64,000 bases of DNA from Escherichia coli (GTDB taxonomy: Bacteria > Pseudomonadota > Gammaproteobacteria > Enterobacterales > Enterobacteriaceae): the NCBI RefSeq assembly GCF_003334255.1, contig NZ_QOWU01000004.1. One strand, 5' to 3'. The notes beneath the pieces were generated by a model. That model saw only the letters and a list, made by a program, of their open reading frames with translations, had not been told where the DNA came from and made no database searches. A program made the translations under genes and the position numbers. This document shows positions 12,869 through 28,889 of the stretch, in pieces. The number at the start of each line of letters is the position of its first letter. The stretch's first letter is position 1.

Positions 12869-14953
12869 CTACTTCTTCTTCGCTGCAGCTCTGCGCCGTC
12901 TGTCCAAATCCTTCAGCAACTTGTTCACGCCATCATCGGCAAACATCGACTCAAGCGTTGCGGAAAGCTTGCGTCGCCAGTTTTTATACTGGTAACTGGT
13001 GCCAGGAATATTCACCGGTTCGGCCATATCCAGCCAGTCTTCCGGCTGTAGTCCTAACAGAGCACTGTTACTGTCGGCAATGTAGCGCTGCAAACCACGG
13101 TTCAGCGTCGGCGTCATCGACATCAACGATGCCTTATGCCCGGCACGTTTCGGCAGACAACCATATTTATGCAGTGCATCCAGCAGCCCTTGCTTCGCCA
13201 GTTCGCGATCCTGATACAGACCGCGCAGTACCACTTCATCCGGATACAGCCCCAGGGTTTTGCCCAGCGTTAGATCCCCGCTCTCCCAGTAACCGCGCAG
13301 CGTTGGCAGGTCATGTGTCGCCGCAACCGCCATCGACTGCTCCGGATACGCTTTCGGTGCACGGAACGTCTTCTCGTGGTCGTTTTCGAAATAGAGCACT
13401 TTGTAAGAGTACACACCGCTGCTGCGCAGCTTACCGACAATCTCTACCGGTACGGTACCGAGATCTTCACCAATCACCATACAGCGATGACGTTTACTTT
13501 CGAGTGCCAGAATCGAGAGCAGATCATCCACCGGATAGTGAACATACGCGCCCTGATCTGCCGTCTCGCCATACGGTATCCACCACAAACGCAGCATCGA
13601 CATCACATGGTCAATTCGTAATGCGCCGCAGTTTTGCATATTGGCACGCAACAGCTCGATAAACGGTTCATAGGCACGCGCGGTGATGATATGCGGGTCC
13701 ATTGGCGGTAATCCCCAGTTCTGCCCCAACGGGCCGAGGATATCCGGCGGCGCGCCAACCGATGCTTTCAGGCAATATAGTTCACGGTCACACCAGGTTT
13801 CCGCCCCACCTTCCGCTACGCCAACCGCCAGATCACGATACAAGCCAATCGGCATTTCATAGCCCTGGCTTATCTCCCAGCAGGCGGCAAACTGGCTGTA
13901 AGCCAGCCACTGCAACCAGAGATAAAAATCGACGTCATCACGATGTTCTTCGCAGAACTGACGCACTTCTGGTGAATCCACGTTCTGATACATCTCTGGC
14001 CATGCAGGCCAGCCCCAGCGCATTTCGTCCTCTTTCACTTGCTGGGCATGTAGCGCATCAAAGGCTGCCTGCCAGAACAGGCTGTCGCCCTGCTCTGCAA
14101 CAAACTGGCGAAACGCGGCCATCTGCTCATCATCACGTTGCGCGAAACCTTTCCACGCCATTCGTAATGCTGTCATTTTTAGGGCGGTAACCGTGGAGTA
14201 ATCGACCCAGTCGGCATCGCGCGCCTGTTGCAGCGTCTGTTGCGTGGTCGGCAACTGCCACCAGGCCTGAGCCTCTTCGCTAAGATGGAAATCTTCAACG
14301 GCGTTAACGTCGATATAAATCACATTCAGCCAACGGCGAGAAGACGGGCTGTATGGGCTGGCGCTCTCCGGATTTGCCGGATAGAGCGCATGAATCGGGT
14401 TCAGGCCAATGAACGACCCGCCACGTTTTGCCACATCCACCAGCATCGCTTTGAGATCGCCAAAATCCCCAATACCCCAGTTTTTTTCCGATCGCAGCGT
14501 ATAAAGCTGAACGCAGGCACCCCACAGCTTTTGTTTATTCAGCAACGCCTGCGGTTCGTAACAGCGTTTCGGGGCGACAATCACCCGGCAATGCGCGCGC
14601 TGGTCGTCCTGGGTGAGTGTCAGCGTGTGATAACCTTCCGGCAGCTTCGTCGGTAGATTGAACGCTTTGCCCCCCGTTACATGGCCTTTGTACTGCGTTC
14701 CTTCTTCGGTGGTCAGCAGCCAGCTATATTCGCCGCTGCCCTCCACCACCATCGGCATTTTTTTGCCGCTGGTATAAACCATGACATTCGGGACTGGCGT
14801 TACCGCCACTTTCGTGGCGGTACGTTGATGCATCGCGTCAAGCAAACGCCGTTTGGTTTCGGCGCTAATCGACTGCGGTTTACCGTGGGCATTGATGTAA
14901 TTGGGGCTAATCCCCGCCGCCAGCGCGGCATTATCCAGACGTTTGCTTTCCAT
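12869..14953 (-). CDS. malQ: 4-alpha-glucanotransferase (amylomaltase) MalQ (694 aa)
   Basis: ORF MESKRLDNAALAAGISPNYINAHGKPQ...; recognised. Confidence 0.96.
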   Translation of the reverse strand: MESKRLDNAALAAGISPNYINAHGKPQSISAETKRRLLDAMHQRTATKVAVTPVPNVMVYTSGKKMPMVVEGSGEYSWLLTTEEGTQYKGHVTGGKAFNLPTKLPEGYHTLTLTQDDQRAHCRVIVAPKRCYEPQALLNKQKLWGACVQLYTLRSEKNWGIGDFGDLKAMLVDVAKRGGSFIGLNPIHALYPANPESASPYSPSSRRWLNVIYIDVNAVEDFHLSEEAQAWWQLPTTQQTLQQARDADWVDYSTVTALKMTALRMAWKGFAQRDDEQMAAFRQFVAEQGDSLFWQAAFDALHAQQVKEDEMRWGWPAWPEMYQNVDSPEVRQFCEEHRDDVDFYLWLQWLAYSQFAACWEISQGYEMPIGLYRDLAVGVAEGGAETWCDRELYCLKASVGAPPDILGPLGQNWGLPPMDPHIITARAYEPFIELLRANMQNCGALRIDHVMSMLRLWWIPYGETADQGAYVHYPVDDLLSILALESKRHRCMVIGEDLGTVPVEIVGKLRSSGVYSYKVLYFENDHEKTFRAPKAYPEQSMAVAATHDLPTLRGYWESGDLTLGKTLGLYPDEVVLRGLYQDRELAKQGLLDALHKYGCLPKRAGHKASLMSMTPTLNRGLQRYIADSNSALLGLQPEDWLDMAEPVNIPGTSYQYKNWRRKLSATLESMFADDGVNKLLKDLDRRRRAAAKKK

Positions 14954-20677: not shown

Positions 20678-20702
20678 AGCCGGATAACGCGCCAGATCCG
20701 GC
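20678..20702. terminator. Hairpin between convergent malT and rtcA (possible bidirectional terminator)
   Basis: gccggat-N9-atccggc inverted repeat. Confidence 0.45.
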
Positions 20703-20715
20703 TTACATCTCTGCA

Positions 20716-24749: not shown

Positions 24750-25489
24750 ATATGGTGGTCCGTCAGCACCTGCATCACGCTTACTGGCGGCGGGGCGTCG
24801 GTGTAGACGGCATCTACCATGCTGATGCTGCCCATATTGACCATCGCGTTACGGCCAAATTTCGAGTGATCGACAACCAGCATAACGTGGCGCGAGTTCT
24901 CAATAATGGCGCGTTTGGTGCGAACTTCGTGGTAATCGAACTCCAGCAGCGAGCCGTCGCTATCGATGCCGCTTATCCCCAGAATGCCGAAATCAAGGCG
25001 GAACTGGGAGATAAAATCGAGCGTCGCTTCGCCAATGATCCCGCCATCGCGGCTGCGTAATTCGCCACCGGCGAGAATGATGCGAAAATCTTCTTTTACC
25101 ATCAACGTGTTAGCAACGTTGAGATTGTTGGTGACAATGCGCAAATTGCTGTGATTGAGCAGTGCGTGCGCTACCGCTTCCGGCGTGGTGCCGATATCGC
25201 TAAACAGCGTCGAGCCATTGGGGATTTGCTCCGCCACTTTGCGGGCGATGCGCTCTTTTTCTTCGGTCTGGGTGGCCTTGCGATCGTGCCACGGCGTGTT
25301 AACCGAACTGGAAGGCAGCGCCGCACCGCCATGATGGCGCAGGATCAGGTTTTGCTCCGCCAGCTCATTGAGGTCGCGGCGAATAGTCTGCGGGCTGACG
25401 GAGAAATGCTCTACCAGCTCTTCGGTACTGACATAACCCTGCTGTTTAACCAGTTCGATAATACCGTTGTGACGTTGTGTTTGTTTCAT
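24731..25489 (-). CDS. glpR: DeoR-family glycerol-3-phosphate regulon repressor GlpR (252 aa)
   Basis: ORF MKQTQRHNGIIELVKQQGYVSTEELVEHFSVSPQTIRRDL...; 3' end overlaps rtcR 3' end by 19 bp. Confidence 0.95.
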   Translation of the reverse strand: MKQTQRHNGIIELVKQQGYVSTEELVEHFSVSPQTIRRDLNELAEQNLILRHHGGAALPSSSVNTPWHDRKATQTEEKERIARKVAEQIPNGSTLFSDIGTTPEAVAHALLNHSNLRIVTNNLNVANTLMVKEDFRIILAGGELRSRDGGIIGEATLDFISQFRLDFGILGISGIDSDGSLLEFDYHEVRTKRAIIENSRHVMLVVDHSKFGRNAMVNMGSISMVDAVYTDAPPPVSVMQVLTDHHIQLELC

Positions 25490-26896: not shown

Positions 26897-28402
26897 ATGG
26901 AAACCAAAGATCTGATTGTGATAGGGGGCGGCATCAATGGTGCTGGTATCGCGGCAGACGCCGCTGGACGCGGTTTATCCGTGCTGATGCTGGAGGCGCA
27001 GGATCTCGCTTGCGCGACCTCTTCCGCCAGTTCAAAACTCATTCACGGTGGCCTGCGCTACCTTGAGCACTATGAATTCCGCCTGGTCAGCGAGGCGCTG
27101 GCTGAACGTGAAGTGCTGCTGAAAATGGCCCCGCATATCGCCTTCCCGATGCGTTTTCGCCTGCCACATCGTCCGCATCTGCGCCCGGCGTGGATGATTC
27201 GCATTGGTCTGTTTATGTACGATCATCTGGGTAAACGCACCAGCTTGCCGGGATCAACTGGTTTGCGTTTTGGCGCAAATTCAGTGTTAAAACCGGAAAT
27301 TAAGCGCGGATTCGAATATTCTGACTGTTGGGTAGACGACGCCCGTCTGGTACTCGCCAACGCCCAGATGGTGGTGCGTAAAGGCGGCGAAGTGCTTACT
27401 CGGACTCGCGCCACCTCTGCTCGCCGCGAAAACGGCCTGTGGATTGTGGAAGCGGAAGATATCGATACCGGCAAAAAATATAGCTGGCAAGCGCGCGGCT
27501 TGGTTAACGCCACCGGCCCGTGGGTGAAACAGTTCTTCGACGACGGGATGCATCTGCCTTCGCCTTATGGCATTCGCCTGATCAAAGGCAGCCATATTGT
27601 GGTGCCGCGCGTGCATACCCAGAAGCAAGCCTACATTCTGCAAAACGAAGATAAACGTATTGTGTTCGTGATCCCGTGGATGGACGAGTTTTCCATCATC
27701 GGCACTACCGATGTCGAGTACAAAGGCGATCCGAAAGCGGTGAAGATTGAAGAGAGTGAAATCAATTACCTGCTGAATGTGTATAACACGCACTTTAAAA
27801 AGCAGTTAAGCCGTGACGATATCGTCTGGACCTACTCCGGTGTGCGTCCGCTGTGTGATGATGAGTCCGACTCGCCGCAGGCTATTACCCGTGATTACAC
27901 CCTTGATATTCATGATGAAAATGGCAAAGCACCGCTGCTGTCGGTATTCGGCGGTAAGCTGACCACCTACCGAAAACTGGCGGAACATGCGCTGGAAAAA
28001 CTAACGCCGTATTATCAGGGTATTGGCCCGGCATGGACGAAAGAGAGTGTGCTACCGGGTGGCGCCATTGAAGGCGACCGCGACGATTATGCCGCTCGCC
28101 TGCGCCGCCGCTATCCGTTCCTGACTGAATCGCTGGCGCGTCATTACGCTCGCACTTACGGCAGCAACAGCGAGCTGCTGCTCGGCAATGCGGGAACGGT
28201 AAGCGATCTCGGGGAAGATTTCGGTCATGAGTTCTACGAAGCGGAGCTGAAATACCTGGTGGATCACGAATGGGTCCGCCGCGCCGACGACGCCCTGTGG
28301 CGTCGCACAAAACAAGGCATGTGGCTAAATGCGGATCAACAATCTCGTGTGAGTCAGTGGCTGGTGGAGTATACGCAGCAGAGGTTATCGCTGGCGTCGT
28401 AA
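26897..28402 (+). CDS. glpD: Aerobic glycerol-3-phosphate dehydrogenase GlpD (501 aa)
   Basis: ORF 26882..28402 trimmed to METKDLIVIGGGINGAGIAADAAGRGL... (FAD-binding GGGINGAG). Confidence 0.96.
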   Translation: METKDLIVIGGGINGAGIAADAAGRGLSVLMLEAQDLACATSSASSKLIHGGLRYLEHYEFRLVSEALAEREVLLKMAPHIAFPMRFRLPHRPHLRPAWMIRIGLFMYDHLGKRTSLPGSTGLRFGANSVLKPEIKRGFEYSDCWVDDARLVLANAQMVVRKGGEVLTRTRATSARRENGLWIVEAEDIDTGKKYSWQARGLVNATGPWVKQFFDDGMHLPSPYGIRLIKGSHIVVPRVHTQKQAYILQNEDKRIVFVIPWMDEFSIIGTTDVEYKGDPKAVKIEESEINYLLNVYNTHFKKQLSRDDIVWTYSGVRPLCDDESDSPQAITRDYTLDIHDENGKAPLLSVFGGKLTTYRKLAEHALEKLTPYYQGIGPAWTKESVLPGGAIEGDRDDYAARLRRRYPFLTESLARHYARTYGSNSELLLGNAGTVSDLGEDFGHEFYEAELKYLVDHEWVRRADDALWRRTKQGMWLNADQQSRVSQWLVEYTQQRLSLAS

Positions 28403-28444
28403 ATTAACGTAAGGTGATCAGGTCAGATTTCAATCTGGCCTGAG

Positions 28445-28575
28445 ACTGATGACAAACACAAAACTGCCTGATGCGCTACGCTTATCAGGCCTACGTGGTT
28501 TATGCAATATATTGAATTTGCATGGTCTTGTAGGCCAGATAAGACGTTCACGTCGCATCCGGCATGAACAAAGCG
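28445..28575. repeat. REP/BIME cluster downstream of glpD
   Basis: gcctgatgcgctacgcttatcaggcctacg ... gtaggccagataagacgttcacgtcgcatccggcatg. Confidence 0.8.
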
Positions 28576-28607
28576 CACTTTGTCAAAAATCTAACCTACT
28601 TTTTAAT

Positions 28608-28889
28608 TCAGGGAATTACCGCAAAGCCCACGCCATCATACCCAACGTAACAAAACTCAGGCACGTTCCCCACTCGCCCCGAGAAAAATAGCATTAATGC
28701 GCCCAGCGCCAGCATAAAAATTTTGAGCAGAAGGTAAATTGTTGGCGTGATAAGGATATTACAAACTTCAATAATACCGGCAAGTCCGACACCCAGCATG
28801 GCAATAACCACCGCCAAAAATTGCGCCAGTATGGGGATGCCGAAAAAAGTCATTACCAGCGAGGTCAAAATCCATTTTCTGTTTTGCAT
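28608..28889 (-). CDS. yzgL: Small hydrophobic protein YzgL (93 aa)
   Basis: ORF 28608..28901 trimmed to MQNRKWILTSLVMTFFGIPILAQFLAVVIAMLGVGL...; two predicted TM helices. Confidence 0.6.
   Translation of the reverse strand: MQNRKWILTSLVMTFFGIPILAQFLAVVIAMLGVGLAGIIEVCNILITPTIYLLLKIFMLALGALMLFFSGRVGNVPEFCYVGYDGVGFAVIP

Follow-up and report, generated by a model that had tools for sequence, protein, structure and literature searches.

BIME-1 elements join a z1 and a y REP unit, occur in single copy and have a conserved long L linker, often with an IHF site (PMC3333891; also PMC1187871). BIME-2 elements join z2 and y, have short S linkers and occur in tandem copies (Ton-Hoang et al., PMC3333891), and it is for this Y+Z2 kind that gyrase binding has been documented (PMC2817692). 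The roles described for REPs in general are mRNA stabilisation, Rho-dependent attenuation, binding of IHF, Pol I and gyrase, and service as IS targets and RayT substrates (PMC3333891, PMC2817692). In K-12 rayT (yafM), the gene for TnpA-REP, is itself flanked by 34-nt Y and 36-nt Z units, identified as Y and Z2 by Nunvar et al. (PMC2817692). In PMC1187871 (citing Bachellier et al. 1997), BIME-1s are reported to be present or absent depending on the isolate, with 71% of BIME-1 length lying in strain-specific loops.

We analysed the element that follows glpD in a stretch of 64,000 nt (64 kb) of Escherichia coli DNA, here called the window. This element is a canonical BIME-1, in which inverted Z1 and Y units stand tail-to-tail around an L linker; it is catalogued as REP256, with two REPs, REPv256a and REP256b (PMC10100675). 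Taken as a whole, the evidence is best explained, with a probability of about 0.88, by REP256 being a BIME-1 in the glpD 3′ untranslated region that would form an exonuclease barrier in RNA and carry an IHF site, would be maintained by RayT, and is not a Rho-independent terminator. The class is well studied (mRNA 3′-end protection, IHF and gyrase binding, RayT-linked repeats) and the glpD copy is ordinary, well-described biology that is already known, so that its significance is mostly one of annotation hygiene.

The window is nearly identical to K-12 MG1655 NC_000913.3:3535117-3599116, yet distinct from MG1655. It has no IS1E in yrhA (~48311), and its coordinates past ~48.3 kb therefore equal those of MG1655 minus 777. 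It carries an extra G at 25339, in the region of glpR, which is annotated as a pseudogene in MG1655; a diverged, recombinant-looking patch at 60.7-63.2 kb spans livK-panZ-livJ; and a 12-nt indel relative to MG1655 occupies 62500-62511, on the left flank of the BIME-1 between panZ and livJ.

REP units at seven extragenic sites

A preliminary description of the window had listed REP units at seven intergenic sites, and a scan with a covariance model recovers them at E<=4e-7. The 13-mer GCCGGATGCGGCG, with up to two mismatches, has 19 matches in the window against 3.99 +/- 1.93 in shuffled sequence, and a two-arm regular expression for the full REP has 13, where 100 shuffles that preserve dinucleotides average 0.45 (maximum 3). 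A covariance model of the REP stem-loop, R1, was trained on 28 REPs from elsewhere in MG1655 (four 50-kb stretches, which puts REP density outside the window at ~28 in 200 kb), and we searched the window with it, filters off. R1 finds 11 strong units (38-58 bits, E 4.6e-12 to 3.8e-7), all inside the seven sites, and each is a 29-37-nt imperfect palindrome, GCC(G/T)GATGCG...CTTATC(C/A)GGCCTAC, with an asymmetric CTAC tail. Weaker matches score 16.7 bits (20679-20706), 13.2 bits (55079-55105) and 9.9 bits (4592-4607). Because every strong match falls at a listed site and the next one reaches only 16.7 bits, the list of seven is correct and complete, and identification as REP/BIME is supported for each of them.

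The repeats are also abundant well beyond this locus. All 5,426 complete E. coli genomes have matches to a 601-nt query containing the glpD element, at 6-42 places each (median 21), and the median for the element queries is 20-40 places per genome. Together with the 19 matches for 4 expected, the 13 full REPs for 0.45 expected and E-values of 1e-7 to 1e-12 from an independently trained model, these copy numbers already refute the idea that G+C-rich intergenic DNA has produced the matches as palindromes by chance, an idea to which only the short length of each unit lends anything and which we regard as next to impossible. The MG1655 RefSeq feature table holds no repeat features across the counterpart region, and searching the entire window against Rfam at gathering thresholds returned RyhB sRNA alone (RF00057, 83 bits, 45807-45871 on the minus strand) and no curated RNA family at the glpD element.

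Table 1. Features of the window. Scores are from R1 unless stated otherwise; the last column gives the number of complete E. coli genomes (of 5,426) in which the site is present.
Feature	Position	Strand	Score or remark	Genomes with site
yhgF/tex	end 4589	+		
tex (yhgF) 3′ site	4592-4662	.	42.2 bits (Y) + 9.9 bits (3′-tail stub)	5,425 (~100%)
Y REP of tex site	4629-4662	-	42.2 bits	
nfuA	end 11082	+		
lone divergent REP after nfuA, 36 nt, Z2-length	11105-11140	+	39.0 bits, E 2.3e-7	4,366 (80%)
gntT	end 12758	+		
gntT/malQ BIME-2-like single unit	12770-12856	.	52.6 + 49.6 bits	2,360 (43%)
Y REP of gntT/malQ site	12770-12803	+		
Z2-length REP of gntT/malQ site, 37 nt	12820-12856	-		
malQ	from 12869	-		
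glpD	26897-28402	+		
11-bp hairpin after glpD stop, no U-tract	28418-28443	+	-16.5 kcal/mol, z -4.8; not REP by R1	
whole BIME-1 unit REP256 with conserved flanks	28442-28595	.	alignment of other genomic copies, ~88-89% identity	2,322 (43%)
Z1-type REP of REP256, 29 nt, GCCTGATGCGCTACGCTTATCAGGCCTAC	28466-28494	+	38.1 bits, E 3.8e-7	
L linker of REP256, 35 nt	28495-28529	.	conserved in other BIME-1 copies	
IHF-consensus-like site ATTCAATATATTG in that linker	28505-28517	-	12/13 match to WATCAANNNNTTR	
Y-type REP of REP256, 34 nt, GCCGGATGCGACGTGAACGTCTTATCTGGCCTAC	28530-28563	-	51.2 bits, E 2.6e-10	
yzgL	28608-28889	-		
glgP	from 29018	-		
ugpA	54131-55018	-		
ugpB/ugpA intra-operon pair	55040-55105	.	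38.3 + 13.2 bits	5,105 (94%)
REP of ugpB/ugpA pair, 29 nt	55040-55068	+	38.3 bits	
degenerate partner of ugpB/ugpA pair	55079-55105	-	13.2 bits	
ugpB	55116-56432	-		
BIME-1 after livF, upstream of ugpB promoter region	56671-56769	.	48.5 + 40.9 bits	4,630 (85%)
Y REP of livF BIME-1	56671-56704	+		
IHF-like site of livF BIME-1	56717-56729		in 36-nt L linker	
Z1 REP of livF BIME-1	56741-56769	-		
livF	from 56831	-		
panZ (panM)	62091-62474	+		
BIME-1 between convergent panZ (panM) and livJ	62515-62613	.	38.1 + 58.5 bits	3,748 (69%)
Z1 REP of panZ/livJ BIME-1	62515-62543	+		
IHF-like site of panZ/livJ BIME-1	62555-62567	-	in 36-nt L linker	
Y REP of panZ/livJ BIME-1	62580-62613	-		
livJ	from 62673	-		

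The intergenic location holds throughout. By the MG1655 annotation, with coordinates adjusted for the missing IS1E, all 11 strong units are extragenic and each of the seven sites lies 3′ of at least one gene (Table 1). Three sites fall between convergent genes (gntT/malQ, glpD/yzgL, panZ/livJ) and four between co-directional ones (tex/feoA, nfuA/gntT, ugpB/ugpA, livF/ugpB); the divergent intergenic regions of the window, about nine in number, contain none. The genes to which the preliminary description had assigned the sites agree with this apart from two: since ugp and liv are both minus-strand operons, 55035-55110 lies after ugpB and 56665-56775 after livF, each one gene away from the assignment first made. 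The first of these sites also lies inside the ugp operon, so that the placement at operon boundaries proposed for the sites does not extend to it.

The sites had further been described as carrying paired inverted units, and this applies fully to four of them (gntT/malQ, glpD, livF and panZ/livJ). At tex a Y REP is accompanied by a stub, the REP 3′-tail CTGGCCTAC ending near 4608; at ugpB/ugpA the partner is degenerate; and the site after nfuA holds a single REP. That last site, first listed as weak at about 11100-11145, proves to be divergent yet significant: it has C-G at the variable stem pair, a compensatory difference, and its hairpin folds at -19.3 kcal/mol. The gntT/malQ site resembles BIME-2 in its Y unit, its short linker of 16 nt and its Z2-length partner, and differs in being a single unit and not a tandem array; it is the only site in the window that resembles the gyrase-type BIME-2. 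Its "Z2" has G/C and not T/A at the variable stem pair, so that filing it as atypical would also be possible.

The intra-operon REPs of malE-malF and hisJ-hisQ are the classic cases of mRNA stabilisers, and REPs were found at malE/malF in the MG1655 training region (L006 25133-25217). Like those of malEFG and hisJQMP, the ugpB/ugpA pair belongs to an ABC-transporter operon, where it separates the periplasmic binding protein gene from the first permease gene; it differs from them in the degeneracy of one unit. The stop codons of gntT, malQ and ugpB lie ~10-12 nt from the first paired REP base (12756-12770, 12856-12871 and 55106-55118). In work attributed to Liang, Rudd and Deutscher, from 2015, REPs no more than about 15 nt from a stop codon are said to stall terminating ribosomes and to lower expression via tmRNA.

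Three elements (28466-28563, 56671-56769 and 62515-62613) match the published definition of BIME-1 and are classed as such for that reason (PMC3333891). Their 29-nt Z units are Z1 by exclusion, because the 36-nt Z that flanks rayT is the published Z2. The linkers and outer flanks of the three align with one another and with the K-12 ubiA/plsB BIME-1. Among the REP sites IHF-like motifs are confined to these three L linkers, each of which has one 12/13 match to the IHF consensus in a constant orientation relative to Y and Z1. Matches of this quality occur at ~1.1 per kb of the window, and the recurrence of the motif therefore reflects shared descent and is not independent evidence of binding.

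Anatomy and readings of the element after glpD

REP256 is like other BIME-1s (also called RIP/RIB, or REP-IHF-REP) in its inverted, tail-to-tail Y and Z1, its ~35-nt L linker with an IHF-like site, its size of ~150 nt, its single copy, its position at the 3′ end of a transcription unit and its presence or absence among isolates; nothing of substance sets the glpD copy apart, the IHF site there being putative. It is set apart from BIME-2 by its Z1 and its long linker. When other genomic copies are aligned, they cover positions 103-256 of the query 28340-28600, and the outer flanks beyond the two REPs are conserved among BIME-1 copies. The interval 28445-28575, given for this site at the outset, is thus a real repeat unit with its right flank slightly clipped, since the other copies extend over 28442-28595. 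The ends of the unit carry a weak, imperfect inverted repeat of 14 nt (79%; 28443-28456 and 28579-28592).

The site lies 63 nt past the glpD stop codon. The Z1 hairpin folds at -13.2 kcal/mol (z -3.6) and that of Y at -12.6 kcal/mol, within the -9.5 to -21.2 kcal/mol of single REP units; in Y the variable stem position is a G.U pair, and in the inner stem A-T takes the place of G-C. Folded as a whole, the 205-nt glpD 3′ region reaches -71.2 kcal/mol (z -6.7; z -4.8 for the opposite strand), with the two inverted REPs pairing mutually into one long hairpin. Just upstream, 16 nt past the glpD stop, is the further hairpin at 28418-28443, whose arms CAGGTCAGAT and ATCTGGCCTG resemble REP arm sequence; it is kept in strains with the BIME-1 allele and missing from the allele that has no BIME.

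The REP stem-loop is maintained by compensatory changes. In a set of 40 distinct REPs, standard pairs fill 96% of pair cells, compared with 26-48% when the partners are slid, and double-sided stem changes number 39 against 12.4 in shuffles, much of this covariation lying between subfamilies. Pairs 4/34 and 12/27 switch among G-C, U-A, A-U and C-G, the tally for 4/34 being GC:20, UA:15, AU:2 and CG:1. As the covariation is largely between subfamilies, part of it could perhaps be descent. One orthologous case was seen, in the glpD Z1 of AST205, where T-A has become A-T.

Stable G+C-rich hairpins past a stop codon and between convergent genes, in an interval that has no other terminator-like site on the plus strand from the glpD stop to 29000, might be read as a Rho-independent terminator of glpD, or as a bidirectional one serving glpD and glgP/yzgL. 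We consider this very improbable. The sequence past 28494 and past 28563 has no T-run, neither do the REP hairpins nor the hairpin at 28418-28443 draw a call from the terminator scan, and glgP has its own hairpin and T-run at 29000-28981. The sequence is moreover a dispersed repeat, and the published effect of REPs on termination is Rho-dependent attenuation (listed in PMC2817692). Throughout the window no REP hairpin is followed by a T-run or called by the scan, and none therefore looks like an intrinsic terminator; at tex a separate terminator-like hairpin with a T-run stands at 4689-4709. With T-runs absent at the REP hairpins we rejected an intrinsic-terminator identity, and the terminator role suggested in the preliminary description fails in its intrinsic form.

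It is less credible still, to the point of being barely tenable, that a small protein is encoded in the interval, or that a dedicated small RNA is. On both strands the three BIME-1 sites are indeed crossed by mechanical ORFs of 38-82 aa, those over the glpD element being 28449-28691 (+, 80 aa), 28423-28578 (-, 51 aa) and 28430-28558 (-, 42 aa), and some RefSeq records annotate a protein, YahH, over a copy of this repeat. The REP model, however, fully accounts for these ORFs, which consist of dispersed repeat sequence; MG1655 has no gene annotated there, equivalent ORFs occur on both strands at every BIME-1 of the window, and no Rfam family is found there at gathering thresholds. We rejected a coding identity for the overlapping ORFs, which are best taken as repeat artefacts. 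Repeats of ~150 nt account for the spurious ORFs at 28.4, 56.7 and 62.5 kb and for strong RNA-structure signals in 3′ UTRs, and REP/BIME masking is needed before searches for novel genes, sRNAs or terminators.

Proposed function and origin of REP256

The identity, structure, copy number, extragenic placement, hairpin-preserving covariation and presence/absence polymorphism of REP256 are direct observations, and to these we add functional steps that we infer from published work on the REP family. The element would be transcribed at the end of the glpD mRNA, in its 3′ untranslated region and convergent with yzgL/glgP. The RNA would fold either as two hairpins of ~-13 kcal/mol or as one long composite hairpin, and this structure would hinder 3′->5′ exonucleases (PNPase, RNase II), buffering the stability of the mRNA upstream. 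At the DNA level, the L linker is predicted to bind IHF. Published data place glpD ("REP256, 2 REPs") among the transcripts with REPs whose levels go up when fluoride impairs ATP-dependent decay, and identify the REP-bearing osmC and yghA mRNAs as degradosome-dependent (PMC10100675).

RayT, the REP-associated tyrosine transposase, whose gene lies elsewhere in the chromosome, most likely seeded the element and would maintain it, acting in trans. The REPs of the window belong to the Y and Z classes that flank rayT in K-12; in contrast to a REPtron, the window has no adjacent tnpA-REP/rayT gene and its MG1655 counterpart no annotated rayT, so that mobilisation would occur in trans. In this lineage rayT lies outside the window (MG1655 247637-248134). 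Compared with a MITE-like transposon, the glpD unit has the weak 14-nt end repeat, and no clean empty sites were seen.

The element occurs beside glpD in only 2,322 of the 5,426 genomes, presence being scored as one place covering >=80% of a query made of the element and short unique flanks. Because the glpD 3′ junction is free of any BIME in 56% of complete E. coli genomes, the element is dispensable for glpD function, and a largely neutral, selfish status stays the main rival: REP256 might be a non-autonomous RayT passenger or a by-product of intergenic recombination, not selected for any role in glpD, with any effect on mRNA or IHF incidental. The alternative junction in 3,014 genomes, decayed copies in strains such as EC974, which has a 20-nt deletion in Z1, and the published presence/absence among isolates and enrichment in strain-specific loops (PMC1187871) are all in keeping with such a history. 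Against it speak the compensatory change between orthologous copies (T-A to A-T in the AST205 Z1), the confinement of REP sites to the 3′ sides of genes, and the REP-dependent mRNA stabilisation published for other transcripts (PMC10100675). We regard an essentially neutral repeat as possible, if rather doubtful, and it and the preferred account of REP256 as a RayT-maintained 3′-end barrier are not mutually exclusive.

Alternative alleles at the REP sites

The seven sites are polymorphic among strains, with presence ranging from 43% to ~100% of the 5,426 genomes (Table 1). The near-universal figure for tex includes 4,021 records at only 80-90% identity, and those sampled are ~19 nt shorter, with a truncated REP tail. 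In the uropathogenic strain EC974, the only sites with REPs by R1 are tex (partial), nfuA, glpD (Y only) and ugpB/ugpA; the 20-nt internal deletion at its glpD site has removed half of Z1. That BIME-1s vary among strains agrees with published work and is already known.

At each of the three BIME-1 loci the BIME-1 and gene-bearing alleles together make up 97.5-98.8% of genomes. The alternative glpD allele (3,014 genomes, 56%) has a junction to hypothetical genes directly 3′ of glpD and no REP, and in the one strain examined the segment runs on into a fimbrial operon. Between panM and livJ the alternative is the ataR-ataT toxin-antitoxin pair (1,613 genomes; segments compared, 62478-62672 and L012 19769-20711), and between livF and ugpB it is a gene for a TPR protein (659 genomes; 56616-56830 and L012 13081-14121). 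No clean empty site was seen at these loci among the alternative alleles in the 5,426 genomes, because those alleles replace the whole intergenic segment.

The interval between glpD and glgP is a three-state variable locus; other strains have the fimbrial-operon island here. Relative to EC974 and AST205, the K-12-like lineage is missing, through loss, ~2.85 kb, a segment that carried a hypothetical gene and two PstS-family genes; the junction, at ~28672-28675, has ~4 nt of microhomology. yzgL (28608-28889) is a deletion remnant, flagged by PGAP as a partial pseudogene.

Synteny between the window and EC974 is broken at seven places, each of them intergenic; four fall at REP/BIME sites and one at the hairpin 20679-20706. 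Elsewhere, EC974 has a dprA-like gene and a RecQ-family helicase gene inserted as a pair between yhgN and gntU (40549-40604), with no REP involved, and has other genes in place of the yhhZ-yrhA-yrhB block (46511-49151; yhhZ-yrhB), again with no REP involvement.

The gntT/malQ site has a short allele in 57% of genomes, 66 nt shorter, which reads TGCCGGAT|GCATCGCATCCGGCA (12770-12856 compared with L011 13011-13056). In it the outer arms of the two REPs are fused and leave only the base of the composite hairpin; its junction has a 2-nt GC microhomology. For this allele a deletion associated with the hairpin is more parsimonious than an insertion, and the remaining hairpin base suggests hairpin-directed excision that leaves mini-hairpins of REP stem. 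BIME-1s might not be simple insertions; they may mark, or arise at, places between genes that see the exchange or loss of small gene cassettes, and might for instance be IHF-bent joints prone to recombination, or "filler" after the loss of a cassette. This is a speculative reading of the alleles, and we hold it to be unlikely.

Between the convergent malT and rtcA, the hairpin at 20679-20706 has a REP outer stem, AGCCGGAT...ATCCGGCT. We rejected it as an eighth REP: at 16.7 bits and an E of ~0.05 under R1, it amounts to no more than a hairpin whose outer stem is REP-like. Like the short gntT/malQ allele, it could be the scar of a REP or BIME, possibly left by the same kind of excision. In EC974 the 49-nt segment that contains this site is replaced by a toxin-antitoxin pair of DUF1778 and GNAT type.
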